Shown one piece after another: positions 114 through 44,557 of a DNA stretch of 49,567 nt. The stretch is taken from the NCBI GenBank assembly GCA_039589115.1, contig JBDHHZ010000011.1:1-49567 (forward strand), written 5' to 3'. A program made the translations under genes and the position numbers. Every line of letters starts with the position of its first letter. Positions within the stretch are counted from its first letter, which is position 1. The notes below the pieces were generated by a model, which saw only the letters and a list, made by a program, of their open reading frames with translations, did not search any database and had not been told where the DNA came from. The DNA comes from Gemmatimonadota bacterium (GTDB lineage: Bacteria > Gemmatimonadota > Gemmatimonadetes > Palauibacterales > KS3-K002).

Positions 114-482
114 ATGCTAATCATCGTTGCCCATGGAAGCCGCGATCCGAAGTGGCGGGTTTCGGTCGAGAGCCTGACCGAATCGCTGCAGGCTGATCTC
201 GGCCCGGATAACCTGCGGCTCGCCTACATGGATGGTGGGCCTCCGACGCTCGATGACGTCGTGTCCGAGGCGGTCCAGACGGGAGTGACACGCATGCGAG
301 TGCTGCCGCTGTTCCTCGCCAACGAGGGGCATGTGGATCGCGACATTCGCCCCGTGGTCGATCAGCTGAGCAGCATCCATCGGTCTGTGGAAGTCGAGCT
401 ACTGCCCGCCGTGGGCCAGCACCGGTTGTTCCGGGAGCTGCTTGCCAAGATCGCCGAAGAGGAGTCCGAGTCTAACGCATGA
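114..482 (+). CDS. cbiX: Small CbiX/SirB-type sirohydrochlorin chelatase
   Basis: ORF 54..482. MLIIVAHGSRD and LPLFLANEGHVDRDI resemble the His-containing motifs of class II chelatases (CbiX/SirB). ATG at 114 follows GAGG. The stop overlaps the next start (ATGA at 479-482). A start at 54 cannot be excluded. Confidence 0.7.
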   Translation: MLIIVAHGSRDPKWRVSVESLTESLQADLGPDNLRLAYMDGGPPTLDDVVSEAVQTGVTRMRVLPLFLANEGHVDRDIRPVVDQLSSIHRSVEVELLPAVGQHRLFRELLAKIAEEESESNA

Positions 483-2002
483 CCACTGCACCCAGCATTC
501 CCCCAGGAAAGGTCTACTTGGTCGGCGCTGGTCCCGGCCATCCCGGCTTGATCACGTTGCGCGGCGTAGAGTGCCTGAAGCAAGCCGACGTGGTGTTGTA
601 CGACTACCTCGTCAACCCGATCGTGGTCGAGCATGCGTCCACATCGGCGGAGTTGGTGGGCCTGGGACATCACAAGATGGGCCGTGCCCTCTCCCCGAAG
701 GAGATCACCGCCCGGATGCTCGAGGAAGCCAGAAAGGGCCGCAGCGTCGTGCGACTGAAGGGTGGCGATCCATCGGTGTTCGGCCGCGGCGCCGAAGAAG
801 AGGAAGCGCTGCGCGCGGCCGGTATCTCCTACGAAATCGTACCCGGAATCACGGCCGGCCTCGCCGTCGCCGCCTACTGCGAGATTCCCATAACGCACCA
901 CGAGGAAGCTTCCGCGGTCGCGATGATCACCGGCCGGGAGCGCGACCATAAGGACGAGTCACACCTGGGCTGTGGACTGGCCGATTTCCCCGGCACGCTC
1001 ATCTACTACATGGGTGTGCGGAGCGCCGGCGAGTGGAGCCGGGCTCTGATCGAGCAGGGCAAACCGCCCGACACCCCGGTCGCGATCGTCCGTTGGTGCT
1101 CGCGGGCGCAGCAGCAGATGGTGCGGTGCACGCTGAGCACGGTACCGGAAGTCATCGAAGAACAAGATGTTGCACCGCCGGCCGTGTGCGTGGTCGGCTC
1201 GGTGGTCGATCGCGCTCCGCAGCTCTCATGGTTCGCGGCCCGCCCGTTGGCCAGCGCCCGCGTCTTGGTGACGGGATCGCCGGGTACCGCCGAGCCGCTG
1301 CGCGACGGGTTGGGCGAGTTGGGAGCGGAAGTGATAACGAGGCCTGCGATTCGCGTCACCGATCCGCCCGACTGGGGACCGGTCGACGCGGCACTGGAGC
1401 GGCTCGACGAGTATGACTGGCTGGTGTTCTCCAGCGCGAACGGAGTGGACTACCTGTTTCGGCGGCTGCGTGACCGTGGCGGTGACGTGCGCCGGCTAGG
1501 GCAGGTGAAGCTGGCGGCCATCGGCTCCGGCACGGCGGAGCGGTTGGCCCGCTACAGCCTGCAAGCCGACCTGGTGCCCGAGCAGTTCGTCGCCGAGTCG
1601 CTGGCCCAAGCCCTTGTGGCCGAGGCCGGAGGCCGCCGCTTCCTGCTAGCCCGGACGAACCGTGGCCGCCAGGTGTTGCCCACCGAGCTCGAGAGAGCAG
1701 GCGGCCATGTCGACCAGATCGTCGTCTACGGCAGCGTCGACGTGGAGGAGCCCGATCCAGCCATGGCAGCCGCGCTGTCGTCTGGAGAGATCGATTGGGT
1801 GTCGGTCACGAGCTCCGCGATAGCGCATGCCCTCGTCCGGCTCTACGGCGAAACCCTGCGGCAGGCTCGACTCGCGAGCATCGGTCCGCTGACATCTGCT
1901 ACGTTGCGCGAGCTCGGTTACGAGCCGGCGGTGGAGGCATCGCCGCACACTACAGCCGGTTTGATCGATGCGATCGTGAGCGGCGGCCTCACGAGAGGCT
2001 GA
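479..2002 (+). CDS. cobA-hemD: Bifunctional uroporphyrinogen-III C-methyltransferase / uroporphyrinogen-III synthase (CobA-HemD fusion)
   Basis: The N-terminal half has SUMT motifs (VYLVGAGPGHPGLITLRG, KGGDPSVFGRG). The C-terminal half (from about RVLVTGSPG) has HemD-like repeats (WLVFSSANGV, KLAAIGSGTAERL, WVSVTSSAIA). Translationally coupled to cbiX. Confidence 0.85.
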   Translation: MTTAPSIPPGKVYLVGAGPGHPGLITLRGVECLKQADVVLYDYLVNPIVVEHASTSAELVGLGHHKMGRALSPKEITARMLEEARKGRSVVRLKGGDPSVFGRGAEEEEALRAAGISYEIVPGITAGLAVAAYCEIPITHHEEASAVAMITGRERDHKDESHLGCGLADFPGTLIYYMGVRSAGEWSRALIEQGKPPDTPVAIVRWCSRAQQQMVRCTLSTVPEVIEEQDVAPPAVCVVGSVVDRAPQLSWFAARPLASARVLVTGSPGTAEPLRDGLGELGAEVITRPAIRVTDPPDWGPVDAALERLDEYDWLVFSSANGVDYLFRRLRDRGGDVRRLGQVKLAAIGSGTAERLARYSLQADLVPEQFVAESLAQALVAEAGGRRFLLARTNRGRQVLPTELERAGGHVDQIVVYGSVDVEEPDPAMAAALSSGEIDWVSVTSSAIAHALVRLYGETLRQARLASIGPLTSATLRELGYEPAVEASPHTTAGLIDAIVSGGLTRG

Positions 2003-12726: not shown

Positions 12727-12780
12727 ATGCAATCAGGGTGGTCGGGAAATGCGGTACCCCATAAAAGCCATACCTGCGCC

Positions 12781-14681: not shown

Positions 14682-14694
14682 GGCGGAGGCGAGG

Positions 14695-16026
14695 ATGTCC
14701 GAAAACAATGTGAAAGAGCAAGTTGTCGACTCTATCAATGCCATCAAAGATGGCCCCCGTGCGATGCGGATGTATATGGAGATGTGCGTCAAGTGCGGGA
14801 CGTGCGCATCGGTCTGCCCGGTGTACTACGGCAAGAGCGAGAAGCGCTACAACCCAGCGGAGCGCACCGACCTGATCCGCCGCATCTACCGCAAGTACAA
14901 CACGCTCAGTGGGAAGTTGTTCGGGAGGTTCGCCGGAGCGGAGGACTTCGACCCGGCGGACATCGATGACTGGCAGACGATCTTCTACGAGTGCACCGGT
15001 TGCCGCCGCTGCGCCATGTTCTGCCCTTTCGGTATCGATCACTCGGTCATCACGCGGAAGGGCCGCGCGATCCTGGACAAGGTCGGTATGACGCCTGAGA
15101 CGATGGCGAGAGTGGTTCAGGTCTCGCTAGAGACGGGGAACACGGACGGCGCCGGGGAGGCGGCGTTCCGGGCAGCGATCGACTTCCTCGAAGAGGAGAT
15201 GAACGACGAGCACGGCATCGACATCAAGATTCCGATCGACGCGAAAGGCGCGGAGTACTTCTATGTCCCACCCTCCGGCGATGTGCTTGTCAACCCGGAG
15301 GCCACGATGGGCGTCGCCAAGGTGTTCCACGCCCTTGGGATGGCGGACCGCTGGACCATGAGCTCCAAGTGCTTCGACGGGGCCAACTACGGGCTGTTCA
15401 CCGGTAACGACGGCGACATGAAGGCCGATAACAAGCTCTATGTGGAGGAAGCCAAGGAGCTAGGCACCAAGGTCATGTTGATGGGCGAGTGCGGCCACGC
15501 GTATCGGATCATGAAGATGATGATGGAGAAGACCGGCTGGTGGGGTGAGCTGCCCTTCGAGATCGTCAACTGCATGGAATGGACCGCCGATCACATCAGG
15601 AACGGCCAGCTCGAGTTCGACAAGTCCCAGAACCAACAGCCCGTCACCTACCACGACCCGTGCAACTTCGGACGTTCTTGTGGCATCACCGAGGAGCCGC
15701 GGGTCATTCTAGAGGCCTCTTGCGCCGACTTCCGAGAGATGCATCCCAACCGCGGCGAGAACTGGTGCTGCGGCGGCGGCGGTGGGCTGTCGGCGATGGA
15801 CGATATCATAGAGTTCCGGATGGAGATCTCCGGTACGAAGAAGCTGGAGCAGATCCGCGAGACCGGGGCCACCTATGTGTCCACCGCCTGCTCCAACTGC
15901 AAGCGCCAGCTGACGCAGTTGCTCGAGCATCACGAGGAGCAGATCGAGGTCGGGGGCGTTCACGACATGCTCTCCCGCTCGATTCTCATCAACGGGAAGG
16001 CCGCGGAAAGGGAGGAGTACGTGTAG
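14695..16026 (+). CDS. HdrD/DsrK-like CCG-domain iron-sulfur oxidoreductase (module c)
   Basis: 2x4Fe-4S motifs (CVKCGTCASVCP, CTGCRRCAMFCPFG) plus CCG motifs (YHDPCNFGRSCG, NWCCGGGGG, TACSNCKRQL). Confidence 0.8.
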   Translation: MSENNVKEQVVDSINAIKDGPRAMRMYMEMCVKCGTCASVCPVYYGKSEKRYNPAERTDLIRRIYRKYNTLSGKLFGRFAGAEDFDPADIDDWQTIFYECTGCRRCAMFCPFGIDHSVITRKGRAILDKVGMTPETMARVVQVSLETGNTDGAGEAAFRAAIDFLEEEMNDEHGIDIKIPIDAKGAEYFYVPPSGDVLVNPEATMGVAKVFHALGMADRWTMSSKCFDGANYGLFTGNDGDMKADNKLYVEEAKELGTKVMLMGECGHAYRIMKMMMEKTGWWGELPFEIVNCMEWTADHIRNGQLEFDKSQNQQPVTYHDPCNFGRSCGITEEPRVILEASCADFREMHPNRGENWCCGGGGGLSAMDDIIEFRMEISGTKKLEQIRETGATYVSTACSNCKRQLTQLLEHHEEQIEVGGVHDMLSRSILINGKAAEREEYV

Positions 16027-16285: not shown

Positions 16286-17668
16286 CTACCGCTGCCTTCT
16301 GAAGCGGACCGCCGCCTGGATGAGTGCCGGCGCCCAGCTTTCGGTGCCCAAAGCGTGCACGTGCGTGTAGCACGCCAGCACATTGCGATGGCACAGTCCA
16401 TCCCTTTCGCCGTCGAAGCCATGTCCACGATGCACGCGGAAGGCGAAGGCGAGGTCGTCCGCAGACGACTGCATGTAGGTGTAGTGGAACTCGTGCCCTC
16501 GTAGGGCATCGCCAACCGCATAGAAGGGATTGCTCTCGACCGTCTCGAGCACGGTGTAGCCGTGTCCCTGTGGCTTGGCGCGGAATGCGAAGACCGCGGG
16601 CAGTGCGGCCACCATCGGGTACTCCTTCCCTTCGAACAGGAGCTTCTCACCCAGATAGACGGTGCCGCCGCACTCGGCATACACCGGTAGTCCCCCCTCG
16701 ATCGAGCGGCGCAGCGAGTCGAGGAACGGTCGGTTCTCAGCCAACGCGGGGGCCAACGTCTCCGGGAAGCCGCCGCCGAGGTAGAGCGCATCGACCTCCG
16801 GCAGTGCCGCGTCGCGAATCGGCGAGATCTCTATCAAGCGCGCTCCAAGCCGTTCCAGGGCCTCGAGGTTCTCGGGGTAGTAGAACTGAAACGCCTCATC
16901 CCGGAACACGCCGATCCGTGCCACCTCCGTCTTCGGTTCCTCGTCGCCGGCCGAGATCCGGGCAAGCGGCTCGAGGGCCGGGGCCTGGAGGGCGATGTTC
17001 CACAACGCCTCCAGGTCGAGGTATCGCTCGGCCACGCCGGCGGCACCCTCTATGGCGTCCGCAAGTCCGCCGTGCTCCTGGGGTGGCACGAGGCCAAGAT
17101 GCCTCTCCGGAAAGAACTGTTCGGGAATCCGTGGGACCGCACCGAGCACGGGCGTTCCGCAGGTACTCTCGATGGCTTCGCGCAGCACGGACTCGTGGCG
17201 CGGGCCGGCCACCTGGTTCAGGATCACTCCCTGGAGTAGGACCTGTGGATCGAGCCGCTGACATCCCAGGACGAGGGCGGCGACGGTGCGTGTCGCCTTG
17301 GCGCAGTCAATGCAAAGAACGACCGGAGCCTGCAGCAGCTTAGCGAGCTCGGCCGAGCTGTAGCTGCCCTGCGCGTCCATGCCGTCGAACAGGCCGCGGT
17401 TGCCCTCGATGACGGCCACATCGGCTTCGGCGGTCGACCCGATGAAGGAATGCAGCGCGGCGTGGGGGGACATGAGGAAGAGATCGAGATTCCGGCAGGG
17501 CTGGTCCGCAGCCAGAGACAGCCAGGCCGCGTCGATGTAGTCTGGCCCCTTCTTGAAGGGGGCCACGCGATGGCCACCCTTCCGCCAGGCCGCCAGGAGT
17601 CCCAGGGATATGAGCGTCTTGCCGCTGCCCCCGCGCAGGCCGGCGATCAAAACGCGGGGGCTACTCAT
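16286..17668 (-). CDS. dsrN: Cobyrinic acid a,c-diamide synthase family protein, DsrN-type siroheme amidase
   Basis: N-terminal P-loop-like LIAGLRGGSGKT and C-terminal glutamine amidotransferase-like region (YAECGG), as in the CbiA/CobB family. Position at the end of the dsr operon matches DsrN. Confidence 0.8.
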   Translation of the reverse strand: MSSPRVLIAGLRGGSGKTLISLGLLAAWRKGGHRVAPFKKGPDYIDAAWLSLAADQPCRNLDLFLMSPHAALHSFIGSTAEADVAVIEGNRGLFDGMDAQGSYSSAELAKLLQAPVVLCIDCAKATRTVAALVLGCQRLDPQVLLQGVILNQVAGPRHESVLREAIESTCGTPVLGAVPRIPEQFFPERHLGLVPPQEHGGLADAIEGAAGVAERYLDLEALWNIALQAPALEPLARISAGDEEPKTEVARIGVFRDEAFQFYYPENLEALERLGARLIEISPIRDAALPEVDALYLGGGFPETLAPALAENRPFLDSLRRSIEGGLPVYAECGGTVYLGEKLLFEGKEYPMVAALPAVFAFRAKPQGHGYTVLETVESNPFYAVGDALRGHEFHYTYMQSSADDLAFAFRVHRGHGFDGERDGLCHRNVLACYTHVHALGTESWAPALIQAAVRFRRQR

Positions 17669-19484: not shown

Positions 19485-19739
19485 TTAGCCGCCGCCTTCG
19501 GCAGCCCCCTCATCTGGTGGAACTTCGATGAAGCTGCCGCCGAAGTACGTGTAGACGCACCTTCCGGAATCCATCAAGGTGCGAATAGCGGCCTTGCAAG
19601 CCTTCTTGTCGACTTCGCCTTCACCGAACTTCTGGATCATCGCCTTGGTCAGATCGCCGGCCTTGAACTTCTTCTTGCCCTGGTACTCGGCGACCAGATC
19701 GTACATGGCGTCCGCGATTTGTTCAGTCGTGACGGCCAT
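19485..19739 (-). CDS. dsrD: DsrD-like small protein
   Basis: 84-aa ORF starting 10 nt after the dsrB stop, the canonical dsrD position. KKKF..GDLTK...VDKK...L.DSG..VYTYFGGS resembles the DsrD winged-helix pattern recalled from Desulfovibrio. Confidence 0.7.
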   Translation of the reverse strand: MAVTTEQIADAMYDLVAEYQGKKKFKAGDLTKAMIQKFGEGEVDKKACKAAIRTLMDSGRCVYTYFGGSFIEVPPDEGAAEGGG

Positions 19740-24131: not shown

Positions 24132-24512
24132 TCAGAGATCCTCGGGCTCTATGTGGCAGCTCCAGCAGCGCGGTGCGACGTTGGAATAGTCGTGGCACCG
24201 GGTGCAGAACGCCTCACGGTTGTCGTGACAGTCCATGCAGGTCCCCGTGAGGCTAATGCTGTAGGTCTCACCTGATGTCGACGTGTACTCAGTCTCTCCC
24301 TCGCGGACCACCGCGTTGCGCCACTGGTTCAGCAGCTCCATGTGCCGCGCGCTCATGTACTCGGTGTCTTCGACGCACTGCGTCTCGTCCTCGGGCAGCT
24401 CGAGCTCGGGGCGGCCAGCCTCATCAGCCGCTACCAGCGTCTGCCACATGGGGAACGCCGCCAGGATCAGAACGGCGGCCAAGCCTGTCAGGGCCTTCGC
24501 TCTATCACCCAT
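24132..24512 (-). CDS. dsrJ: DsrJ, membrane-anchored periplasmic trihaem cytochrome c
   Basis: ORF 24132..24539 trimmed to MGDRAKALTGLAAVLILAAF (ATG 24512, overlaps the dsrK stop). Three CXXCH motifs: CMDCH, CTRCH, CWSCH. Confidence 0.85.
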   Translation of the reverse strand: MGDRAKALTGLAAVLILAAFPMWQTLVAADEAGRPELELPEDETQCVEDTEYMSARHMELLNQWRNAVVREGETEYTSTSGETYSISLTGTCMDCHDNREAFCTRCHDYSNVAPRCWSCHIEPEDL

Positions 24513-26172
24513 TGCCGGCGACCTCCACCACCTCGCCATGCTCCTCGACCTCCGCCATGCCCGGGATCGGCTCCAGTCGCAGGTTGTGCGTGCGCTTCTT
24601 CTCGCCTTTGAAGATCATCGCGTTGGCCACGAGCTCGCTGATGCCGGTCACTTCGACACCCGGCGCCCAATAGTCACAGACCGTCACGAGGGTCGCCCGG
24701 TCGATGGCACACATCGCGGCGAGCTGGTTGACGCCGTGCTGCTCCTGCACGTGTCGCACGGCGCTGCCTCTGGGCAGGCCGCCGCGCAATCGCATCTCCA
24801 TGTTCTCGTCTGTTCCCAGCCCTGCACCGCCACCGCAGCAAAACGTCTGTTCGCGGATGGTGTTCTCCGGCATCTCGTAGAAGTTGTTGCAAGCGCTCCG
24901 TATTACGTACCGCGGCTCCTCCAGGATGCCCATGCCGCGGGCTGTGTTGCAGGAGTCATGGAACGAGACGCGAAGGTGATCGTTCCTCGACGGATCGAGC
25001 TTCAGCTTGCCGTGGCGAATCGCGTCGGCCAGGAACTCCATGATATGAACGACCTTGGTGGACCGGGCATTCTCGAATACCGTACCGGTGAGCGGTGAGC
25101 TGGGCACCTCCAGGAAGTCGGCGGGCCCAGTCATGGTGCTCATGTACTGGTTGATCACCCTCCACATGTGCCCGCATTCACCGCCCAGGATCCACTTGAC
25201 ACCGAGGCGCTCGGCCTCGGCGTAGATCTTGGCATTCAGGCGCTTCATCGCCTCGTGGGACGTGAACAGCCCGAAGTTCCCTCCGTCGGATGCGTAGGTG
25301 CTCCAGGTGTAGTCGATCCCCAGCTCGTGGAACAGCAGCATGTAGGACATGCAGGTGTAGATGCCGGGAGCGGCGACGAAATCACCCGACGGCGTGAAGA
25401 ACAGGATCTCGGCGCCCTTCTTGTTGATCGGGATGTCGATGCTGATGCCCGTGGCCTCCTCGATGTCCTCCGCCATGAACTCCAGGGTGTCCTTGAGGCC
25501 GTGGGGCTGGATACCGAGATGGTTGCCGAACCGATAGCAGTTGGCCACCGGCTCGATGACCCAGTTGACGTAGAGGCCGAGCAGACCCAGCAGCTCCCTG
25601 CCCATCATGGTGATCTCGGCCGTATCGATCCCGTACGGACAGAAGACCGAGCAGCGCCGGCACTCGGTGCACTGGAAGAAGTAGTAGAACCACTCCTTTA
25701 TGACATCGGGTGTGAGCTCGCGGCCTCCCGCCAGCTTCCCGAACACCTTACCCAGCGCCGTGAAGTCCCTTCGATAGATGGACCGTAACAGCTCGGCCCG
25801 TAGCACCGGCATGTTCTTGGGATCGCCGCTGCCGATGAAGAAGTGGCACTTGTCGGAACAGGCACCGCACCGGACACAGATGTCCATGAAGACCTTGAAG
25901 GTGCGGTACTTGCCCAGCCGCTCCGCCATCCCGTCAAGGACGATCTCTTTCCAGTTCTCCGGGAGCTGCCAGTCCTCGTCGGTGACGGCCCAGTCCCTCG
26001 CGTACGGCAGATCGAGGACCCGGAGTTTCTTGGCCTTGCCCGGGTAGATGTAGGTGCCCGGCCTGAAGTCGACCGGCGTGTTCATCCACGGCGTCCCGGG
26101 CGGGCGCCAATCCAGCTTCAACAGCTCTTCCTGCTTGTAGTACGCCGCTTCGTCCGGTTTTGGTGTCTTCAT
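24505..26172 (-). CDS. dsrK: DsrK, catalytic HdrD-like CCG iron-sulfur subunit of DsrMKJOP
   Basis: CVRCGACSDKCHF and CTECRRCSVFCPYG ferredoxin motifs; CCG motifs FHDSCNTARGMG and FCCGGGAGLG. The start overlaps the dsrM stop (ATGA). Confidence 0.9.
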   Translation of the reverse strand: MKTPKPDEAAYYKQEELLKLDWRPPGTPWMNTPVDFRPGTYIYPGKAKKLRVLDLPYARDWAVTDEDWQLPENWKEIVLDGMAERLGKYRTFKVFMDICVRCGACSDKCHFFIGSGDPKNMPVLRAELLRSIYRRDFTALGKVFGKLAGGRELTPDVIKEWFYYFFQCTECRRCSVFCPYGIDTAEITMMGRELLGLLGLYVNWVIEPVANCYRFGNHLGIQPHGLKDTLEFMAEDIEEATGISIDIPINKKGAEILFFTPSGDFVAAPGIYTCMSYMLLFHELGIDYTWSTYASDGGNFGLFTSHEAMKRLNAKIYAEAERLGVKWILGGECGHMWRVINQYMSTMTGPADFLEVPSSPLTGTVFENARSTKVVHIMEFLADAIRHGKLKLDPSRNDHLRVSFHDSCNTARGMGILEEPRYVIRSACNNFYEMPENTIREQTFCCGGGAGLGTDENMEMRLRGGLPRGSAVRHVQEQHGVNQLAAMCAIDRATLVTVCDYWAPGVEVTGISELVANAMIFKGEKKRTHNLRLEPIPGMAEVEEHGEVVEVAGNG

Positions 26173-27155
26173 TGCCGCTCCACAGGAATCCCAGCCCGCT
26201 TCATTTTGTCCCTGAGTTCGTCCTCGTACTCCTCGTACGTATGCACCTTAACCGGGTAGTCCCAGGGGTTGAGGTGTCGCACCGCTCGGTTGCTGTTCGC
26301 CATGTTCCTGGTCGGACTCAAGAAGACACCCGCCATATGGGCCAGCTTGCTGAACGGGAAATAGGCCAGCAACACGCAGACCAGGAACAGGTGGCCGTAG
26401 AACAGAGGGCTGATCGTATCGGGCACCACCGGCGCGAAACGCGCCAGCCCGAGCGCCAGCTCTTTTACACTCGCGATGTCCGTCTTGGCCAAGTGCCGCA
26501 GCCAGAACCCACTGATACCGATCCCCAACAGCAGGAACAGCGCGAAGTAGTCACCCAGCAGCGAGATGTACCGCACCTGGCCGATCGCGAGGCGTCTGTA
26601 AAGCAGGTAAATCGTGGCAACAACGAAGACGACTGACGTGATGAAGAAGACCGGCAGGCCTACCTCCATGAACCCGTCGGCCCTCTCCAGGACCGTCACG
26701 AAGAGGGGCACCGGGTTACTGAGTAGCCGCAGATGCCTGATCAGAATGACCAGCAGCGACCAGTGCATGGCCAGCGCGGCGATCCACAGCCCCAGGTCAG
26801 TCGCATAGACCAACCTGCGCCCTTCGACCAGCTCCGTCTTCGTGTTCCTCAGCAACGAGCGAAAGAAGAGGACCTCCAGGGCCATTCTCCCGATCACCCA
26901 GAGCGTGTTGTGCGGGTTCTCCAGCTTCTGCTGCTCGAGCCAGCCGAGCGACTTATGCTGACCGCACGTCGTGGGGATGCGGAAGGGAACGGGAACGTTC
27001 GCCCAGCTCAGGACCCGGTGGATGAGTCCACCGACGAACAGCACCAGGGCCACGTAGGTGAGTAGGACGAACACCAACCCCGCGCCTGGCAACCCGCCGA
27101 GGGTTCCCAGCAGGAAGAGGCCGACCACAGCCAGCAAGGCGACCACCACGTTCAT
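26169..27155 (-). CDS. dsrM: DsrM, NarI-like dihaem cytochrome b membrane subunit
   Basis: 328-aa polytopic membrane protein with AYFPFSKLAHMAGVF. First gene of the dsrMKJOP block. Confidence 0.9.
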   Translation of the reverse strand: MNVVVALLAVVGLFLLGTLGGLPGAGLVFVLLTYVALVLFVGGLIHRVLSWANVPVPFRIPTTCGQHKSLGWLEQQKLENPHNTLWVIGRMALEVLFFRSLLRNTKTELVEGRRLVYATDLGLWIAALAMHWSLLVILIRHLRLLSNPVPLFVTVLERADGFMEVGLPVFFITSVVFVVATIYLLYRRLAIGQVRYISLLGDYFALFLLLGIGISGFWLRHLAKTDIASVKELALGLARFAPVVPDTISPLFYGHLFLVCVLLAYFPFSKLAHMAGVFLSPTRNMANSNRAVRHLNPWDYPVKVHTYEEYEDELRDKMKRAGIPVERQ

Positions 27156-33412: not shown

Positions 33413-34678
33413 TTACTCCCCGCAGCTTTTGAGAGCCTTCATGGCGACGCCGGTGGCGTCTCGCACGCATGTGGCCACATCCGTGGGGCGCTTGGCACAT
33501 CCGGCGGCCAGCAGCCCCGCTTGCTCCTGCTCGCTGGTCAGAAATCCGAACTCGTCGGTCCGCAGACCGCCGTCCACCTGCACATCACCAGCGTCGGCCG
33601 GTACCAGGCCGGTCGCCAGCACGACGAGGTCGACCTTCTGTCTCACACGCTCGGTCGTGAGCGTGTCTTCTGCCTCGACTTCCAGGTATCCAGAAGCATC
33701 CTCGGTGATCTTCGCCACCTTGCCCTTGATCAGGCTGAGCTTCTCGTCCTTCTCGGTCGCGGCGAAGAAATCCTCCAGCCGGCCCGGCGCGCGGATGTCT
33801 ATATAGAAGACATAGATCTGCGCTTCCGGGTATTGCTCGCGGACGTAGCGTGCCTGCTTGAGAGAGCCCAGGCAGCAGACCCCGGAGCAGTGTTTCAGGT
33901 AGTCCTCGTCGCGCGAGCCGGCGCACTGCACGAACGCAATGCTGTCGATTCCCTTCCCGTCGGAAGGCCTCTGGATCTTCCCGCCCGTCGGCCCGTTGCC
34001 CGAGGCCAGGCGCTCCATCATGAGATTCGTGATCACGTTGGGATACACCCCGAATCCCAGGTTCTCGATCTTCTCCGCGGCGAACGGGCTCCAGCCCGTC
34101 GCCCAGATCACCGCCTGAACCTCCAGCTCGATCGTCTCGGGCTGCATTTCGAGGTCGATCGCATCGTACGGGCACGCCGGAACGCATTTCGCGCATTCGC
34201 TACCCGGACACACGCTGCCGTCGATCACGAACTGCATGGGGTGAGCCATCTCGAACGGCAGATAGACCGCCTTCGTCACACTCATACCGCAGTTGAACTC
34301 GTCGGAGCGCTCCACCGGGCAGGCTTCGACGCAAGCTCCGCACGCCGTGCACTTTGCGTTCACATAACGCGGGGTACGCTGGATCGTGGCTTTGTAGTCA
34401 CCGGGTCCGCCCGTGATCTTCTCGACCTGTGACAGCGTCAGGCACCGAATGCGTGGGCTCGTTCTGATGCGACGGAAGTTGATCTCCAGGCCGCAGGTCG
34501 GTGGGCAGAGCTTCGGGAAGTACTGGCTCATCTGTGCCACGCGGCCGCCGAGGTAGGGGTTCTTCTCGACCAGAACCACCTCACAGCCCGCTTCGGAGGC
34601 TTCTATGGCGGCGGTGATGCCGCTAATGCCTCCGCCGATCACGAGGACGCTTCCCCGCTTCCCGTTTCCGCTCATCAT
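33413..34678 (-). CDS. qmoA: QmoA, HdrA-like flavoprotein
   Basis: VIGGGISGITAA FAD fold; CTACGACVEACP and CAKCVPACP ferredoxin motifs; CAGSRD. The start overlaps the stop of the upstream Cys-cluster gene. Confidence 0.9.
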   Translation of the reverse strand: MMSGNGKRGSVLVIGGGISGITAAIEASEAGCEVVLVEKNPYLGGRVAQMSQYFPKLCPPTCGLEINFRRIRTSPRIRCLTLSQVEKITGGPGDYKATIQRTPRYVNAKCTACGACVEACPVERSDEFNCGMSVTKAVYLPFEMAHPMQFVIDGSVCPGSECAKCVPACPYDAIDLEMQPETIELEVQAVIWATGWSPFAAEKIENLGFGVYPNVITNLMMERLASGNGPTGGKIQRPSDGKGIDSIAFVQCAGSRDEDYLKHCSGVCCLGSLKQARYVREQYPEAQIYVFYIDIRAPGRLEDFFAATEKDEKLSLIKGKVAKITEDASGYLEVEAEDTLTTERVRQKVDLVVLATGLVPADAGDVQVDGGLRTDEFGFLTSEQEQAGLLAAGCAKRPTDVATCVRDATGVAMKALKSCGE

Positions 34679-35568
34679 GTATCCTCGTCGCGGGCCGTGG
34701 CCGGCTTTCCGCTGAACACTTCCCTCTTGTCGACGCTGCCCTTGAACGCATCGACGACCTCCGGCCTGGCCCTTACGGTCGGCTCGCCGAATAGGCTGAA
34801 CCGCAGCCAGAGGAACGCGAAGCGCAACAGCGCCTCGTCGTCGTTGCGCATCTCTTCCACGAAGTCCTCATCCACATCAAACCGCTGCAGCAGCGTGCTG
34901 TCGAACACGAACTCCCTGAACTTGTCCAGGTCGTAGGCCGCGGTGAACAGCATGTGCATCTTCGGTGGGGAGAGGACCCCGCCATCCTCGAAGAACGAGT
35001 GGAGCGTCAGTTCCTTGAACGCTTCACCCCACTCGTCGTATTCATCGATACCCTGGTCGTCGAGGAATTCGCGAATCGTCCACTCGTGCGACTCGCCGAA
35101 CCCTTTACAGCCCTCTTCCTGCAGGAGGAAGTAGAAGCGGTCCCCTCGCCAGCCGTCCGGGGTGTCCTTCTGAGCCGCCAGCCCCAGGGGGTACATACGG
35201 CAGGGCCACGGCCGGTCGGAGTAGATGCCGCAGCCGCCTTCCGTCAAGAACGGACAGGTTTTGACCTCCCCGTCATTCATGCGCATCATGACTACGGGAG
35301 TCTTCATGTCCTTCTGGACGGGGAGCAGCGCGTACTTGTCGAGGAACTCGCTGGACGTCATGCCCAGGCGTCGCTTCATGCGCAGGACGTCGTAAGGGGA
35401 CAGGAAGATGTTCACGTCACTGCAGCACTTATTGAAACAGGAGACGCCTGGGTGACACGCGAACTTGAACGTGTCGTCCGGGCCCAGTCTGGGGTGATCT
35501 GTCAGGATCTTCTCTTCTAGTTGGCCACGCGGGTCCTCGATGACCGGGGGTTTCTTCTCGTCGGTCAT
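34675..35568 (-). CDS. YkgJ/UPF0153-type Cys-cluster protein with ~150-aa C-terminal extension, inserted between aprA and qmoA
   Basis: FACHPGVSCFNKCCSDVNIFL..CPFLTEGGCGIYSDRPWPCRMYP matches the CxxCxxCC zinc/iron-chelating family pattern. ATGA-type overlaps with both neighbours. Confidence 0.65.
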   Translation of the reverse strand: MTDEKKPPVIEDPRGQLEEKILTDHPRLGPDDTFKFACHPGVSCFNKCCSDVNIFLSPYDVLRMKRRLGMTSSEFLDKYALLPVQKDMKTPVVMMRMNDGEVKTCPFLTEGGCGIYSDRPWPCRMYPLGLAAQKDTPDGWRGDRFYFLLQEEGCKGFGESHEWTIREFLDDQGIDEYDEWGEAFKELTLHSFFEDGGVLSPPKMHMLFTAAYDLDKFREFVFDSTLLQRFDVDEDFVEEMRNDDEALLRFAFLWLRFSLFGEPTVRARPEVVDAFKGSVDKREVFSGKPATARDEDT

Positions 35569-35849
35569 TCGTCCTCTCCTTCCTCATCCTCCACGATCAT
35601 CTCCCGCGTCGCGGAGTCCGACCAGACCGGAATCATCGACGAGACACCGGTGGTGGGATTGACCATGTATCGGTACGACGCATGTTGGCTGAACTGCTGC
35701 TCCATCCACGCCCATCCCTCCTGGTAGTACGAGCAGTCGTCGTTGAAGCAGACGAAGAGGAATTCCTCGATCCACGTGGCGGCGTCCGGGACAAGCCATT
35801 TCTTGAGACGGGCGCCACAATGTGCGCAGGTTCGGGATGCTTCAGACAT
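35565..35849 (-). CDS. Small 4-Cys (zinc-ribbon-like) protein with acidic tail
   Basis: ORF 35565..35939 trimmed to ATG 35849 (GAGGAG SD, 4-nt spacer). MSEASRTCAHCGARL..FVCFNDDCSYY gives CxxC...Cx4C. Ends EDEEGEDE. The stop overlaps the next start. Confidence 0.45.
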   Translation of the reverse strand: MSEASRTCAHCGARLKKWLVPDAATWIEEFLFVCFNDDCSYYQEGWAWMEQQFSQHASYRYMVNPTTGVSSMIPVWSDSATREMIVEDEEGEDE

Positions 35850-35964
35850 CGGGCTCCTCGATCCGTCTCGGACTGCCGGGGTGACCATAGAGCGGTCGAT
35901 CACCACACCGGTGTGGCGTAAGGAAACAGCGCTTGACATAGGACGAGCCTGGGAATGAGGAGCG

Positions 35965-38777: not shown

Positions 38778-40985
38778 CTAGGAACCGGCCAGCGAGCGCA
38801 GGCGATTCTCGATCGACTCCTCCGCCTCCTCTACAGCGCGGAGGAAGTGCGGTCGGGAGCGCATCGCTTCGGCGAAGGCGGCCACCGCCAGGTCGAGATC
38901 CTCCGCGGTCCAGAGTGTGAGACCGGGCGGCGTCTCCCTGCTGCTGATCGAGCCGAACGTATTGAAGTCGACCACTCGGAGGGGCCGCTCGGCGAAATCC
39001 CGCAAGCCGCTGAGCGTCTCGACATCGAGGACGGGTTCCTCGTAGTCGATGCCGAAGTACACGAAGTCCGCATCCGCGATCGCACGAGTGACGCCGGCCT
39101 CCGAGTATGACTGGACACGTAGGCGTTTCCCGTGACCGATGGCGCCGCGCAGCAGCTTCAGCTGGCCATGGTGCCCTCTGTGCACCAGCGTCATCTGGTT
39201 CTTGGGTACGTCGAAGTGGTCGGACAGCGCGGCCAGGATCGAACGCGAGGTGGCCGATCCGCCAATCACCACGTGGCGACACTCGTCCATGTGGGCGCCG
39301 TCCACCTCATGGACCCGTGTGAGGGCAGCCAGACAGAAACCGGGGCTGAAGCGGCTCCACGTGGTCTCGGCCCGCACATCGTGCGACAGCGCCACCGCGC
39401 TCTTCACCAGACAGGTCGCACGAGGGCCTGCGGTTCCGGCGCGCTCCGCCATCCGGCACGCCGTCTGCAGCTGCGCTACCACATCGCTGTCTCCGGGCAA
39501 CGCACTGTTGAGGCCGGCTGCGGTACGCATCATATGATGCCAAGCGTCGATGCCGAACAGCGTGTTCAACTCGAGCCCTTCGGGCTCGGCACCGTACAGC
39601 CGGCCGCGTATCTGCTCCACAGCGCGCTTACGAGCGGCCAGGTCGCCTGGATCCGCGAGCCATCCGTAGAACTCGATTCGCTGACAGGTATTCCAGACGA
39701 ACGCCTCGCGAGCGTCCGGCAGTTCCCGCACCCAGTCCAGGAACGCGAGGACCTCCTTGCGGGTCTTCCTCACCTTCCCGAAGGCGCGCGGATGGCTGTA
39801 CCTCATGTGTGGGCCGCGGCCCGAACGGACCCCACCCTCGAACGAGACGCCGATCATCACCAGCGACTCGGGTTCGCCGTCGCAGACCTCCGACTCCGGC
39901 TTCGGTCTCAGCAGTGGAATCGGCGCCGCCCGATCCGGCGTCATCGGACGTGGCCCGCGAAGTACCAGATTCCTCAGAGCTGCGATGAACGGCTCGGAAG
40001 CGTTCAGCGCCGGGCACAGGTGGAGGTGGCCGCCGCCGGCCTCGAAGGCCTCCCGGCATACCAGACCGATCTCTCCCAGCGTCTCCATGCCATCGACGGG
40101 TGAGGTGATCGGGCAGATTAGCACCTTCTTCTCACCCGCCGCGGCAAGCTCGGCAAGCCTCTCCCGGATGTCGGGGCGGAGCGACCGAACAGGAGCGGGG
40201 CGAGGCTGGTAGGCCAGAGAGGTCCGCTCCATCGGCCAGCCCAGCCGGTCGGCGACCAGCCTGACCGTCCGTCTCACCTGCCCGGCATAGAGGGATCCCC
40301 CGTGAGCCCTGGAGGCCGGTTGGTCGTGCGCGCAGAACACCAGGTGCGTGTCGTCCGGCCACAGATTTCGCGACGCCGCGTAGTCGGCGAGGGTTCGGGC
40401 CTGCGCCTTCACGTACCCCACGTCGTCATACCACGTGGAACGCAACGCCACATTGATGTGCTGCCCCGTGTGTCTGAGGACTCGGTGCAGCTCGCGCATG
40501 ATGGTGCCGGACGTGGCACGATTGAACTGCGGATGCATCGGCACGACCACAAGGTCGTCGATGCCGTCCGCCTCCACCTGGCTCATGACCTCGGCGACCG
40601 CTGGCTGGCCATAGCGCTTTGCCACGTAGACGGTCCAGCCTTCGGGCAGCGCGGTGGCGAGGGCCGAGGCCTGATCCGATATGATGACCGCCAACGGAGC
40701 CCCGCGAACATCCCAGATCTGGCGGTACAGGTCGGCCGAGCGAGGTGCCAGGCGCGCGGCGCGAGACCGGCCGAGGACCTTGTGAAGCCACCTCAGCCCC
40801 AGAGGCCACTTGACGACCGAAGAGTCGGTGAAGGACTCCGCCAGGAACTCGCGCACCGACCCAACGTCTGGCCCATCGGGTGTTCCCAGACCGATCAGCA
40901 CGACGCCCCGGCGCCGCCGAGCCGGCGACGAGCGGTCGCCGCGCGATGACGGCACAGATGATTCGGAGTTGGCTAGCTGCCCCAA
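38778..40985 (-). CDS. Fusion protein: ferrochelatase-like N-terminal half + glutamyl-tRNA reductase-like C-terminal half
   Basis: Continuous 735-aa ORF. The N-terminal half is ferrochelatase-like (VVLIGLGTPDGPD..VREFL, VVVPMHPQF, LVFCAHDQP). The C-terminal half is GluTR-like (LVMIGVSF.., WNTCQRIEFYGW with catalytic-type Cys, MMRTAAGLNSALPGDSDVVAQL, Rossmann-like VVIGGSATS). Junction near 39900-39950. Confidence 0.7.
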   Translation of the reverse strand: MGQLANSESSVPSSRGDRSSPARRRRGVVLIGLGTPDGPDVGSVREFLAESFTDSSVVKWPLGLRWLHKVLGRSRAARLAPRSADLYRQIWDVRGAPLAVIISDQASALATALPEGWTVYVAKRYGQPAVAEVMSQVEADGIDDLVVVPMHPQFNRATSGTIMRELHRVLRHTGQHINVALRSTWYDDVGYVKAQARTLADYAASRNLWPDDTHLVFCAHDQPASRAHGGSLYAGQVRRTVRLVADRLGWPMERTSLAYQPRPAPVRSLRPDIRERLAELAAAGEKKVLICPITSPVDGMETLGEIGLVCREAFEAGGGHLHLCPALNASEPFIAALRNLVLRGPRPMTPDRAAPIPLLRPKPESEVCDGEPESLVMIGVSFEGGVRSGRGPHMRYSHPRAFGKVRKTRKEVLAFLDWVRELPDAREAFVWNTCQRIEFYGWLADPGDLAARKRAVEQIRGRLYGAEPEGLELNTLFGIDAWHHMMRTAAGLNSALPGDSDVVAQLQTACRMAERAGTAGPRATCLVKSAVALSHDVRAETTWSRFSPGFCLAALTRVHEVDGAHMDECRHVVIGGSATSRSILAALSDHFDVPKNQMTLVHRGHHGQLKLLRGAIGHGKRLRVQSYSEAGVTRAIADADFVYFGIDYEEPVLDVETLSGLRDFAERPLRVVDFNTFGSISSRETPPGLTLWTAEDLDLAVAAFAEAMRSRPHFLRAVEEAEESIENRLRSLAGS

Positions 40986-41557: not shown

Positions 41558-42010
41558 TCAGTGCCCGACGCTCAGAATCCCGCTCGCCGCAAGCGCCAGG
41601 ATCAAGACCTCCAGTAGGGCCATGGCCACGTAGGCCTTCTCCTTCTTCCTGATCAGCGTTGGGACGATTCCCAGGAAGCAGACTATGGTCACTCCGGAAA
41701 GCAGGGCGATTCCTAAGAAGTTAAGATAGTCTCCCTTTCCAAGCACTGACAGCCAGGACCATCCTGATACGGGGTGCTCCCGGTGCAAATGGTCATTGTT
41801 TGTTGCTTCCAGGTACTCCTGGACGCTCATCGTCCAGTAATCGGGCAGTTGTTCCACGGGTATGGCCGGCTGGACGATGCCGGAGGTGTAGAGGGCAAAG
41901 GTCACGAATAGAAGCGCCAGCCCAGTGTACATGCCGGCCTGGAGGATCTTGGCGTAGAGCAGCTGTTCCTCGTCTGCGCTCGGGCAGTCTGCTTCGCCAT
42001 TCATGTCCAT
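41558..42010 (-). CDS. Small membrane protein, DUF1634-like partner of the TauE/SafE permease
   Basis: 150 aa with about 3-4 hydrophobic helices, immediately downstream of the TSUP-type permease gene, the usual DUF81/DUF1634 pairing. Family assignment from memory. Confidence 0.5.
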   Translation of the reverse strand: MDMNGEADCPSADEEQLLYAKILQAGMYTGLALLFVTFALYTSGIVQPAIPVEQLPDYWTMSVQEYLEATNNDHLHREHPVSGWSWLSVLGKGDYLNFLGIALLSGVTIVCFLGIVPTLIRKKEKAYVAMALLEVLILALAASGILSVGH

Positions 42011-42025
42011 GTCTACCCTCGTTCC

Positions 42026-43087
42026 CTACACGATAAACGGGAGGCCCAGTCCCTTGGTAAGGGCCTTGGCCCCGGCGAATAGCAGCAGGCCGATCACGAT
42101 CCAGCGAACGAATCCCGGCCTCGCTATCCGCAGGATCCGTACACCGATGAACGAACCCAACATGATGCCAACCAGTGACGGCACGACCATCATCGGGATC
42201 ACGGCACCTCTGTTGATATAGATCCAGGCCGCCGATGTATCCGTGATGGATAGGAGGAACTTGCTGGTTGCGACGCTGACCTTGAGCGGCGCACCCATGA
42301 CCAGGTTCAGAACCGGAATGTTGGCCCAGCCCGCACCCAGTCCGAACATCCCCGCCATGACGCCAATCACGATGAACAGGAGCAGGCCGGGCACGGTCCG
42401 GTGCACCTTCCAGTTGATCGTCTGTCCCATGCTGGCCTCTGTGTACACACCGCAGATCCGCAGGGCCGAGGAAACGCGATCCGCCTCCTTGACCTCCGGG
42501 AACACGGACTTCTTCGCCGCGATCATCAGGGCTACGATCCCCAGGATGGTTGCCCCAAGCGCCGTCTGGATGATGTGCGTCGGTAGAGCGAGGCCGATCA
42601 TCGCACCCACGATCGCGCAGCTCGAGGCGATCAAGGCCACCGGCATCGCCAGGCGAAGGCTTGCCAGGTTCATCTTCAGGAAACCCGGCCCGGCGGCGAG
42701 GGCGCCGCTCAGAGCTACCAGAAGGCCGCAGCCACGAACGAAGTCAATGTGAAAGGGGAAGAAACCGCTGACGATCGGAACGTAGAGAACCCCTCCGCCC
42801 ACACCGCCCAGGGCCGCGAGAATCCCCATGACGAACGTGAGTACGAACAGGATGAGCGGCCACACCCACCAGGCCGTCGTGCTGCTGGCAATCGCAGCCG
42901 TCGTCAGCTCGCTCGCTTGGATGACTGTTGGGTGGAACAGCAGGATGAGGCCGAGCAGCGCGATGATACGGCCGAGCGAAGCAAGAGCGCGCACTCTCCC
43001 GGGGCAGCGGTCCGATCCGACGACCCATAGCGATCCTGGGATGCCCAACCCTCTTACTCCTCGCTCCTCTTCCCTCGATACGAGCAC
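42026..43087 (-). CDS. TauE/SafE (TSUP, DUF81) family anion exporter-like permease
   Basis: Polytopic membrane protein with repeated glycine-rich helices (LGGVGGGVLYVPI, GLGAGWANIPVL). The ORF starts with a GTG abutting the upstream stop; the true start is uncertain. Confidence 0.7.
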   Translation of the reverse strand: MLVSREEERGVRGLGIPGSLWVVGSDRCPGRVRALASLGRIIALLGLILLFHPTVIQASELTTAAIASSTTAWWVWPLILFVLTFVMGILAALGGVGGGVLYVPIVSGFFPFHIDFVRGCGLLVALSGALAAGPGFLKMNLASLRLAMPVALIASSCAIVGAMIGLALPTHIIQTALGATILGIVALMIAAKKSVFPEVKEADRVSSALRICGVYTEASMGQTINWKVHRTVPGLLLFIVIGVMAGMFGLGAGWANIPVLNLVMGAPLKVSVATSKFLLSITDTSAAWIYINRGAVIPMMVVPSLVGIMLGSFIGVRILRIARPGFVRWIVIGLLLFAGAKALTKGLGLPFIV

Positions 43088-43906
43088 CTAGGGATACGGG
43101 TCAAACCACTCAACCTTCAGGCGAACCTCCTCAACGCCCGGTACGGAGCGGGCGATCTCCGCGATCTGATCCCCCATCCGGCCGGACGACAGGGCGGGGG
43201 CACTGCCAGATACGTCTACTACTCCGCCTTTCCCCTCGATCTGGAGATCGAGAGAGCGGGTCTCGCGTGCGCTCGCCAGAGCGACCTTGACCCGACACGC
43301 CAAGCGGAAATCAATGAGCTTCGCCTTTACTTCGTCCGTGATGGCAAAGTCCGGCTGCTCTACCGTCGTTGCCACTATGTCGCACGCGGAGGGTATCGAC
43401 AGCGTCTGCAGGTTGATCACCATGTCGTACAACGCCGGGTCCTCGATATCTTCACCGTACACCATCTTGACCCAGCGTGCCCGCACTGCGTCCACATGCC
43501 GTATGTACTGCTCCGCCGACGTCGGGTCCAACTCTTCACTTTCCACCAGCATACGCACTCGCACGCCCATCGGGGCAATCAGGCGCACCCGCAGGACACC
43601 AGGAAGTCCCGCCAGGAGTATTTGGCCCGCACGCCCGTGGTAGACTAACTCTCCACCGACGACGTGCTCCGCCAGGGCTGCCTGTAATGTCGCGATGAAC
43701 ATCCGGCGTGCCGACGCATGCCGATCCCACAATCTCGGTGTGCGCTCGAACTCTTGACTCAGATCCTCCTCCGATACATCCAGCTCGGCAGCCGCTTCCC
43801 GAATGACTTCCCGCGCAACGAGGGGATACTGAAGCCGCTCGGCAAGGCATTCCGCCAACGCCTGCCCGCCGCTCTTCGTGCCTCGACAAACGCTGATGAT
43901 TGCCAC
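43088..43906 (-). CDS. Cytidylate-kinase-like family protein with C-terminal BON-like domain
   Basis: MAIISVCRGTKSGGQALAECLAERLQYPLV resembles the AAA/cytidylate_kin2-type N-terminus. The C-terminal GVVDVSGSAP..IARSVPGVEEVRLKV is BON-like. Confidence 0.6.
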   Translation of the reverse strand: MAIISVCRGTKSGGQALAECLAERLQYPLVAREVIREAAAELDVSEEDLSQEFERTPRLWDRHASARRMFIATLQAALAEHVVGGELVYHGRAGQILLAGLPGVLRVRLIAPMGVRVRMLVESEELDPTSAEQYIRHVDAVRARWVKMVYGEDIEDPALYDMVINLQTLSIPSACDIVATTVEQPDFAITDEVKAKLIDFRLACRVKVALASARETRSLDLQIEGKGGVVDVSGSAPALSSGRMGDQIAEIARSVPGVEEVRLKVEWFDPYP

Positions 43907-43909
43907 GCC

Positions 43910-44557
43910 TCAGTCTTCTCCTAGCTGCTGGAGCTGCTCACGGCACGCGGTCGCAAAGGCTTCAAGCTTTCTCTTCACGTCGGCCGTTACCTCGAACTGC
44001 GGCTGTGCCGCTGCTTGTCCAATGATCCTGCACGCCGTCTCGAGGGAGATGGACCGCAGGTTGACCGTCACATCGTACAACGACGGATCCTCGACGTCGG
44101 CCCCGTACATAAGCTTGACCCAGCGCCGGCGGTCTTCGTCCACGTTGTGGATGTACTCCTCGGCCGCCTTTCGGCTCATGCGGTGTTGCGGCTCCATCAA
44201 TGCCTGGGCTCGCATGTCCAGTGGAGCGATGAGCCGCGCAGATAGCACGCCGGGAACGTCTCGCAGGAGGAATTGCCCGGCCAGGCCGTGGTAGACCAGA
44301 CTACCGGTCACACAGTGCTCGGCCAGGGCGGCCTTCACCGCGAGCAGGTATGTCTTGCGCTCCTGCGTCAGTCGAGCCCACCGAGACGGAGGAGACTCTA
44401 GCTTGCCGCTCAGATCCTCCACCGCCACCCCCAGCTTCCTGGCGGCCTCTTGGAGGATCTCGCGCCCGACGCAGGGGTACCCGAGCATACTTGCCAGGCA
44501 ATCAGCCGTGACCCGGCCTCCGCTCAGAGTTCCACGCGAAATCGTGATAATCGGCAC
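43910..44557 (-). CDS. Cytidylate-kinase-like family protein (paralogue of 43088..43906)
   Basis: MPIITISRGTLSGGRVTADCLASMLGYPCV, and colinear similarity to the downstream paralogue (LVYHG.AGQ.LL..VPGVL..RLIAP). Confidence 0.6.
   Translation of the reverse strand: MPIITISRGTLSGGRVTADCLASMLGYPCVGREILQEAARKLGVAVEDLSGKLESPPSRWARLTQERKTYLLAVKAALAEHCVTGSLVYHGLAGQFLLRDVPGVLSARLIAPLDMRAQALMEPQHRMSRKAAEEYIHNVDEDRRRWVKLMYGADVEDPSLYDVTVNLRSISLETACRIIGQAAAQPQFEVTADVKRKLEAFATACREQLQQLGED

Follow-up and report, generated by a model that had tools for sequence, protein, structure and literature searches.

A gene family in Gemmatimonadota and Planctomycetota that joins ferrochelatase-like and glutamyl-tRNA reductase-like domains in one protein

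In most bacteria, archaea and plants, control of tetrapyrrole synthesis is exerted at glutamyl-tRNA reductase (GluTR, HemA). Heme feedback on the plant enzyme requires a heme-binding partner protein, GBP (PMC6597238), and the only ferrochelatase fusion mentioned in a 2026 review is the HemH-HemQ (CpfC-ChdC) protein of Cutibacterium acnes (PMC13564367). Here we analyze a 49,567-nucleotide stretch of Gemmatimonadota DNA (assembly GCA_039589115.1, contig JBDHHZ010000011.1, positions 1 to 49,567; hereafter the window), in which a single open reading frame (ORF) encodes both a ferrochelatase-like and a GluTR-like domain. An original prediction made from the DNA letters alone had proposed this fusion and knew of no described example; consistent with this, full-text literature searches that included the same review (PMC13564367), two dsr comparative-genomics papers and a paper on the archaeal heme pathway found no mention of a ferrochelatase-GluTR fusion. 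What is new is the domain architecture, together with a previously undescribed short-form GluTR subfamily; each half belongs to or derives from a well-known enzyme family.

The 735-codon frame (Table 1) contains no internal stop, as the original prediction had stated, and a Shine-Dalgarno-like GGGGGA run lies 9-14 nt 5' of its TTG start. The strings quoted in that prediction (VVVPMHPQF, LVFCAHDQP, NTCQRIEFYGW and AAGLNSALPGDSDVVAQL) all occur in the translation. The Pfam Ferrochelatase profile (PF00762) matches residues 26-342 with an E-value of 4.4e-65 and 220 bits (cut-off 27), spanning model positions 2-314 of 317, and the protein passes the NCBIfam hemH equivalog TIGR00109 (182 bits, cut-off 124.6). 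In the C-terminal half, Pfam GlutR_N (PF05201) matches residues 407-541 (E 4e-17, 62.8 bits, cut-off 27). The AlphaFold2 model, for which 62 homologues were used, has a mean predicted local distance difference test score (pLDDT) of 87 and is confident in both halves; ten-residue blocks of the ferrochelatase half mostly exceed 85, and values fall below 50 only at residues 1-21 and 362-367. Foldseek aligns the N-terminal half to human ferrochelatase (FECH, 1hrk) with an E-value of 2e-20, a template modeling (TM) score of 0.78 and root-mean-square deviations of 2.5-2.9, revealing the two-lobe fold of class II chelatases, and aligns the C-terminal half to the Arabidopsis and M. kandleri GluTRs with an E-value of about 1e-16 over ~365 columns. 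Both predicted domain assignments are therefore confirmed, although the GluTR half does not start at about residue 355, as had been suggested, since its fold begins at ~372-375 with the strand SLVMIGVSF.

A search for the same architecture among 5.8 billion proteins, which the original prediction had advised, returned 82 homologues (protein clusters) with identities down to 38%, all 82 of which contain both PF00762 and PF05201; two of them, at 1270 residues, additionally include a radical-SAM HemN. Scanning one genome per GTDB species yielded 72 fusion loci, every one in a metagenome-assembled genome (MAG) of Gemmatimonadota or Planctomycetota (mostly Phycisphaerae), with no cultured strain among these species representatives. 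The fused ORF is found across many studies and assemblers and in two phyla, down to 35-38% identity. This recurrence bears on the concern that a missed stop or a frameshift near 39850-40000, a region that had been singled out for checking, had joined adjacent hemH and hemA-like genes. The linker is of low complexity and poorly modeled, which is all that we found in favor of such a merger. Two independent metagenomes (marine-sediment and cold-seep) contain contigs of related strains that cover 39733-39985 and 39815-40147 without indels, albeit as short pieces of 160-330 nt that constitute thin read evidence; the identical sequence was absent from the public runs searched, which shared at most 18% of its words. 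Within the clade to which the window protein belongs (the window clade), the linker has a ratio of nonsynonymous to synonymous substitution rates (dN/dS) below 1. The recurrence and the gap-free contigs from other metagenomes exclude a sequencing error, a hidden stop or a restart at the junction, and we regard an artificial merger of two genes as vanishingly improbable. In databases these proteins are named 'ferrochelatase' by NCBI and sometimes 'protoheme ferro-lyase/glutamyl-tRNA reductase' by JGI; where the name 'ferrochelatase' stands alone, pathway reconstructions from MAGs would wrongly score hemA as missing and a decayed hemH as present.

Conservation within the protein is highest in the GluTR half. 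In alignments with 1gpj and 4n7r, its active site comprises T433, C434 (codon 39684-39686), R436, E438, H484 and S494, which we take to be the counterparts of T49, C50, R52, E54, H99 and S109 of E. coli HemA; of the eight residues that form the nucleophilic cysteine and glutamate-recognition set, six are identical in the window protein and one is conservatively replaced. Across 62 aligned family sequences, T433, C434, R436, E438 and S494 do not vary, and the histidine at 484 is nearly invariant. Nearly all invariant columns of this alignment fall in the GluTR half, where they also include R487, T488, G491, L492, P497, Q505, G575, S577, T579, D673, F674 and N675, compared with only D188, L215 and W250 in the ferrochelatase half. 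Downstream of the catalytic domain, a Rossmann-like beta-alpha fold aligns to 5yjl and 1gpj, and D673-F-N675 occupies the position of the canonical D-I-A-x-P-R motif. We also considered the C-terminal half as a shikimate dehydrogenase-type protein and rejected this assignment, as it gave only a partial match (E 0.0028) and GluTR is the better match by both sequence and fold.

The family is well separated from canonical GluTRs. A phmmer search of the full library recovered it as 66 matches at E <=1e-30, followed after a clean gap by canonical GluTRs at 57-77 bits and 25-33% identity. Five standalone GluTR-like proteins of 353-378 amino acids (P0162, P0163, P0166, P0203 and P0219; ~26% identity) display an STCNRFE motif and a G-S-G-x-T loop, together with the HR and DFN motifs of the fusion family. 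A neighbor-joining tree, which lacks support values and was used only as an indication, places the fusions in a single clade with the Gemmatimonadota type nested inside, and these standalone proteins in a small sister clade. As the standalone sister clade shares the HR and DFN features, a 'short-form GluTR' seems, judging from these motifs, to predate the fusion.

The genomic context in Planctomycetota is that of a heme operon. Genes at 88 loci were labeled by blastp against reference proteins drawn from Pfam-labeled loci, and ~35 Planctomycetota loci have the order fusion-hemN-hemE-hemY-hemB, in most cases accompanied by hemL-hemC-(hemD); in L003, hemL lies immediately 3' of the fusion. The reference HemN (466 vs 325), HemL (565 vs 527) and HemY (262 vs 98) proteins pass their NCBIfam equivalog cut-offs, which indicates that the Planctomycetota pathway is protoporphyrin-dependent. 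Using blastp, with E. coli HemA as the detector, no separate hemA- or hemH-like ORF was found in the 8-10 kb flanks of the 88 loci, as only the fusion ORFs matched; thus, in Planctomycetota the fusion stands in the place of both absent genes and is the most likely source of the first and the last enzyme of heme synthesis. Two Planctomycetota MAGs carry triple fusions, HemH-GluTR-HemN, of ~1240-1270 amino acids (L006/L028 at 9332-13141 and L051 at 5714-9421), in which the radical-SAM protein HemN forms the third part and hemE and hemY come next in order. In L055 (1790-10169), from a MAG labeled Phycisphaeraceae, dsrA-dsrB-dsrL-dsrN lie directly 5' of the fusion, and either the dsr-linked arrangement extends beyond Gemmatimonadota or the bin is mixed.

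The ferrochelatase half varies from intact to absent along the family. Planctomycetota members contain intact FSAHGLPxSY (FSAHGLPVSY), YQSRxGPxxWLxP and DCLETLEEI motifs, which are standard for Gram-negative enzymes. The window protein retains His220 (CAHDQP, codon 40326-40328) and Glu301 (DGMETLGEI), presumably equivalent to H183 and E264 of B. subtilis and H263 and E343 of human ferrochelatase. Its porphyrin-cleft motif reads Y-Q260-P261-R-P-A-P-V-R-S268-L-R-P, so that, relative to the invariant Q-S-x8-W motif (which we equate with Q221, S222 and W230 of B. subtilis), Gln260 is kept, the serine is replaced by Pro261 and the tryptophan by Ser268. The cleft serine and tryptophan are lost throughout the window clade, in which the histidine (CAH[G/D]QP) and glutamate (DGxETLGEI) persist. 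In other Gemmatimonadota the histidine, the glutamate and the cleft motif are all gone, often along with 60-100 N-terminal residues, yet the decayed halves persist in most of these genomes as domains of 220-340 residues. Pfam Ferrochelatase scores follow this series, falling from 304-320 bits in Planctomycetota to 220 in the window protein, then to 172, 101, 75 and 48 in its sister clades and to no match in L056 and L066, with the GlutR_N score steady at 59-79 bits throughout.

Two Gemmatimonadota loci have lost the ferrochelatase half altogether. L056 (7689-8873, 395 amino acids) and L066 (7857-9071, 405 amino acids) contain standalone short GluTR-like genes that match GlutR_N only; the former is 69% identical to the C-terminal half of the window protein and has the window-like neighbors tauE-sirC-x-apr, and the latter sits among x-cbiX-cobA/hemD. 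In both, the ferrochelatase half is deleted while the fusion's neighbors are kept. Mean pairwise identities of the ferrochelatase and GluTR halves are 0.61 and 0.49 in the intact type, 0.39 and 0.58 in the decayed type, and 0.76 and 0.78 in the window clade. Nei-Gojobori estimates of dN/dS in the window clade range over 0.19-0.31 in the ferrochelatase half (about 0.23 for the window copy) and 0.15-0.24 in the GluTR half; the ferrochelatase half of the window protein is therefore under purifying selection and is no relic.

In Gemmatimonadota the fusion belongs to a different but no less conserved setting, a dsr/siroheme island with the order dsrMKJOP-dsrAB-(84-aa dsrD-like)-dsrL-dsrN-(tauE-150 aa)-sirC-fusion-cbiX-cobA/hemD. 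The gene sirC lies directly 5' of the fusion in the window and in every Gemmatimonadota relative with a recovered upstream flank, except L068; L021 has dsr...sirC-fusion-hemB, with hemC and hemL alongside. The window is a rearranged version of this island that contains sat, qmoABC, aprBA, dsr genes and dsrN. It keeps tauE-x-sirC-fusion together (43087-38778), whereas cbiX and cobA-hemD, which directly follow the fusion in relatives, lie at the opposite end of the island, at a distance of ~37 kb (114-2002), with a 4-nt overlap between cbiX and the start of cobA-hemD. The CbiX segment at 114-482 was found by tblastn with 58% identity to the fusion-adjacent cbiX of L002, scores 71.7 bits against Pfam CbiX (PF01903), and is, by these similarities, likely to be the sirohydrochlorin ferrochelatase of the island. 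A promoter-like site at 44612-44585 on the minus strand precedes the ~44557-38778 stretch, and a promoter/terminator scan returned no terminator-like sites; together these hint at a single transcription unit from ~44557 to 38778.

We favor, at a probability of roughly 65%, the reading that these proteins form a genuine two-domain family whose GluTR half is the entry enzyme of tetrapyrrole synthesis, and whose ferrochelatase half is active in Planctomycetota, has been released from its role in Gemmatimonadota, and is not a sirohydrochlorin chelatase. From the anatomy, family membership, synteny, residue conservation and selection described above, we infer the enzymatic activities and their coupling as follows. 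The glutamyl group of Glu-tRNA would be bound to Cys434 as a thioester, which a nicotinamide cofactor in the divergent Rossmann domain would reduce to glutamate-1-semialdehyde for transfer to HemL. In Planctomycetota the N-terminal half would be the pathway's protoporphyrin ferrochelatase, inserting iron in the last step. In Gemmatimonadota the gene would have been recruited into the dsr/siroheme island, with the GluTR half as the part kept by selection; this half would open tetrapyrrole synthesis for the siroheme or siroamide of DsrAB (by way of cobA-hemD, sirC, cbiX and dsrN) and would also supply the heme of the Dsr and Qmo membrane complexes, and ferrochelatase activity would have become dispensable, releasing that half from its original role. 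As L056, L066 and the standalone sister clade have no ferrochelatase domain, the GluTR half can apparently work alone. For the N-terminal half of the window protein, two roles are most likely, and about equally so: a ferrochelatase of reduced activity, or a module that binds tetrapyrroles or supports the GluTR half structurally.

Several observations weigh against this reading. The fusion fails the hemA equivalog TIGR01035 (64.8 vs 209.55 bits), covering model positions 18-277 of 416. At the positions that we take to be E114 and Q116 of E. coli HemA, the window protein has D499 and D501, and aspartate or glutamate is present at both across the family. The original prediction's Rossmann-like segment is present as a fold, but its dinucleotide loop is G575-G-S577-A-T579-S (GGSxTS in the family) rather than GxGxxG/GAGEMG, and H602-R603 (HRG) replaces the canonical NRT of GluTR. 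Of the four profiles that the prediction had named, Ferrochelatase and GlutR_N match the window protein, and the other two do not: Shikimate_DH (PF01488) is unmatched in it and reaches 16.9-22.6 bits in relatives, under the 24.3 cut-off, and GlutR_dimer (PF00745) is unmatched in it and in every relative scanned, the window protein terminating at the equivalent of ~residue 328 of M. kandleri GluTR (1gpj), before the dimerization domain. Because of the loop and NRT changes, the acidic residues in place of E114 and Q116 and the missing dimerization domain, cofactor use and tRNA recognition may differ from those of canonical GluTR. In addition, no hemL, hemB or hemC is located near the fusion within the window, the absence of separate hemA and hemH genes covers 8-10 kb on either side so that a second canonical copy elsewhere in these genomes is possible, and the AlphaFold model has no confident interface between the domains (predicted TM score 0.54). 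Finally, with its His and Glu kept and under purifying selection, the ferrochelatase half of the window protein may be a working enzyme.

The low hemA score, the distance from canonical GluTRs and the altered Rossmann motifs and missing dimerization domain could instead mean that the C-terminal half has evolved from GluTR toward a different substrate or cofactor, or is a relic without activity, with 5-aminolevulinic acid provided through a separate canonical HemA. The invariance of the thioester-forming cysteine and of the Thr, Arg, Glu and Ser residues that bind glutamate argues otherwise, as do the strong conservation of this half and its hemA-like position, beside hemL, in heme operons that are otherwise complete; we consider such a change or loss of function rather unlikely. 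A different function has also been proposed for the N-terminal half: the original prediction suggested that it might insert iron into sirohydrochlorin (the SirB function) for the siroheme of DsrAB, being fused so that siroheme demand would control entry into the pathway. The gene neighborhood does bear out a link to siroheme and Dsr, with sirC adjoining the fusion and dsrN, cbiX and cobA-hemD in the island. Moreover, sirC is directly upstream and probably in the same operon, its product is short and lacks the chelatase-associated C-terminal part, and the altered cleft motif of the window clade, with its catalytic residues kept under purifying selection, could reflect a change of substrate. The argument that the island has no sirB or cbiX, leaving HemH as the siroheme chelatase, was ruled out when tblastn located the CbiX-type small chelatase adjoining cobA-hemD. 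The fusion itself scores 12.7 bits against the CbiX/SirB profile PF01903, under the cut-off of 22; cbiX lies directly 3' of fusions in sister genomes whose ferrochelatase halves lack the catalytic residues; and L056 has window-like tauE-sirC-GluTR-apr synteny without a ferrochelatase domain. Because the island has a dedicated CbiX, the N-terminal half decays or vanishes while the operon stays, and the intact form is found in protoporphyrin operons, a sirohydrochlorin chelatase is unlikely, and the whole proposal of demand-controlled entry through it is decidedly improbable.

What the N-terminal half might do in Gemmatimonadota is addressed by a further possibility, namely that the ferrochelatase-derived domain is a tetrapyrrole sensor or scaffold that gates or stabilizes GluTR, providing covalent feedback and perhaps replacing the dimerization domain, with catalysis secondary or lost. 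GluTR is a known control point whose heme feedback in plants needs a separate heme-binding protein (PMC6597238), every fused member lacks the GluTR dimerization domain, the decayed halves still span 220-340 residues in most Gemmatimonadota, and the window-clade half is under purifying selection despite its lost cleft residues. However, the modeled interface is not confident, L056 and L066 dispense with the domain, and a short standalone GluTR-like sister clade exists. We therefore consider this idea rather unlikely, and the same applies to its strongest form, in which a Gemmatimonadota pseudo-enzyme sensor would match tetrapyrrole entry to the siroheme demand of DsrAB and short-form GluTR would be a distinct mechanistic class. 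Coupling of an end product to pathway entry, as the original prediction had envisaged, would be a plausible and attractive role.

Table 1. Positions of the fused gene, its domains and associated genes in the window.
Feature	Position	Strand	Basis
Fused ORF, 735 aa, TTG start, stop codon 38778-38780	38778..40985	-	ORF listing, translation
Ferrochelatase (HemH/PpfC-type class II chelatase) domain, aa 26-343	39957..40910	-	Pfam, NCBIfam, Foldseek, motif survey, dN/dS
Linker, aa 344-374, Pro/Arg-rich	39864..39956	-	AlphaFold model, family alignment
GluTR catalytic domain, aa 375-545	39351..39863	-	Pfam GlutR_N, alignments to 1gpj and 4n7r, family-invariant columns
Divergent Rossmann-like (NADPH-domain-like) fold, aa 546-693	38907..39350	-	Predicted secondary structure, Foldseek, motif comparison
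Two C-terminal helices, aa 694-735, matching the start of the GluTR 'spinal' helix	38781..38906	-	1gpj and 4n7r alignments, AlphaFold model
Short sirC-like precorrin-2 dehydrogenase, 168 aa	41030..41536	-	NAD_binding_7 and cysG_Nterm matches; synteny
150-aa membrane partner of TauE	41558-42010	-	Synteny; unit with permease 41558..43087
TauE/SafE-family permease	42026-43087	-	Pfam; just 5' of sirC-fusion in relatives
Small CbiX-type chelatase, ORF from 54	114..482 (conserved part)	+	tblastn, ORF, Pfam
cobA-hemD fusion (uroporphyrinogen-III methyltransferase and synthase)	479..2002	+	TP_methylase and HEM4 matches
ORF whose counterpart adjoins sirC-fusion upstream in relatives	16286..17668	-	Profile and synteny

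Other genes of the island merit description. Upstream of tauE, two tandem cytidylate kinase-like (PF13189) paralogues, one with a BON domain, occupy 43088-44557 (minus strand), and both genes are also found with the dsr/siroheme clusters of L007 and L008. An 84-amino acid ORF (19485-19739, minus strand) that separates dsrB from the dsrL-like gene had no NCBIfam match but is probably dsrD, all Gemmatimonadota relatives having an ORF of 81-85 amino acids in the same place; the presence of DsrD-like and DsrL-like genes in one island bears on the question of reductive versus oxidative Dsr. A 215-amino acid protein encoded at 10969-11616 (minus strand) contains two DsrC-like stretches (a tandem DsrC). 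At 7830-9605 (minus strand), an HdrD/DsrK-like protein (Fer4_8 and CCG) is joined to a C-terminal response-regulator receiver domain, in what looks like an unusual fusion of a redox enzyme and a receiver; a PAS histidine kinase gene adjoins it (6309-7769), and the HdrD/DsrK-receiver gene is also found at the edge of L008. Three dsrM/dsrK-like pairs (NarI-like plus Fer4/CCG) are located at 2689-5210 (minus strand), 13962-16026 (plus strand) and 24505-27155 (minus strand), two of which adjoin MerR-type regulators. Two genes are inserted between aprA and qmoA (34675-35939, minus strand), one for a CxxCxxCC (PF03692) protein and one for a small zinc-finger protein of the Ogr/Delta type. In CP070812.1, a complete MAG (L001/L015, 12658-13003), the fusion is followed by aprB (115 amino acids), no aprA, and then unrelated genes, which suggests loss of the apr operon with retention of sirC-fusion. 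Lastly, the overlapping broken ORFs that run through dsrL, dsrN, the fusion and cobA-hemD in L077 (2013-11837) look more like frameshift errors from long-read assembly than a biological feature.

How end products act on GluTR is only partly understood, and a protein that ties the last enzyme of the pathway to the first is a simple system in which feedback or scaffolding can be tested. In addition, the family provides a graded natural series in which the ferrochelatase half is intact, motif-altered but constrained, decayed, and finally deleted, and which shows the release of a catalytic domain as its operon is re-used for the siroheme of dissimilatory sulfite reductase.

Compared with canonical ferrochelatases of the HemH/PpfC type (human FECH, 1hrk, and proteobacterial HemH), the window protein has the same fold, passes the hemH equivalog and retains the catalytic His and Glu, but it is fused to GluTR, carries Pro261 and Ser268 in the cleft motif, reads AHD in place of AHG, and lacks a C-terminal [2Fe-2S] extension. 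With canonical HemA proteins (1gpj, Arabidopsis 4n7r/5yjl and E. coli) it shares the catalytic fold, the TCxRxE and H..R...GL.S motifs and a following Rossmann-type domain, and its relatives likewise adjoin hemL; it differs in having neither a dimerization domain nor a long spinal helix, in its GGSxTS, HR and DFN motifs, in being only 25-33% identical, and in failing TIGR01035. The HemH-HemQ protein of C. acnes is likewise a natural fusion of ferrochelatase to a heme-pathway enzyme, although there the partner performs the next step, as the coproheme decarboxylase of the coproporphyrin pathway, whereas here the partner is the first enzyme and the ferrochelatase is nearer to the protoporphyrin type. 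Plant GluTR and GBP offer a functional analogy for a regulatory role, as a tetrapyrrole-binding module may similarly be attached to GluTR, but GBP is a separate, unrelated and non-covalent partner, unlike the fused ferrochelatase half. CysG and the cobA-hemD protein, the latter also present in the window, are multi-step tetrapyrrole fusions as well; these join consecutive steps of one branch, whereas the fusion described here joins the entry step of the pathway to a terminal step of another branch.

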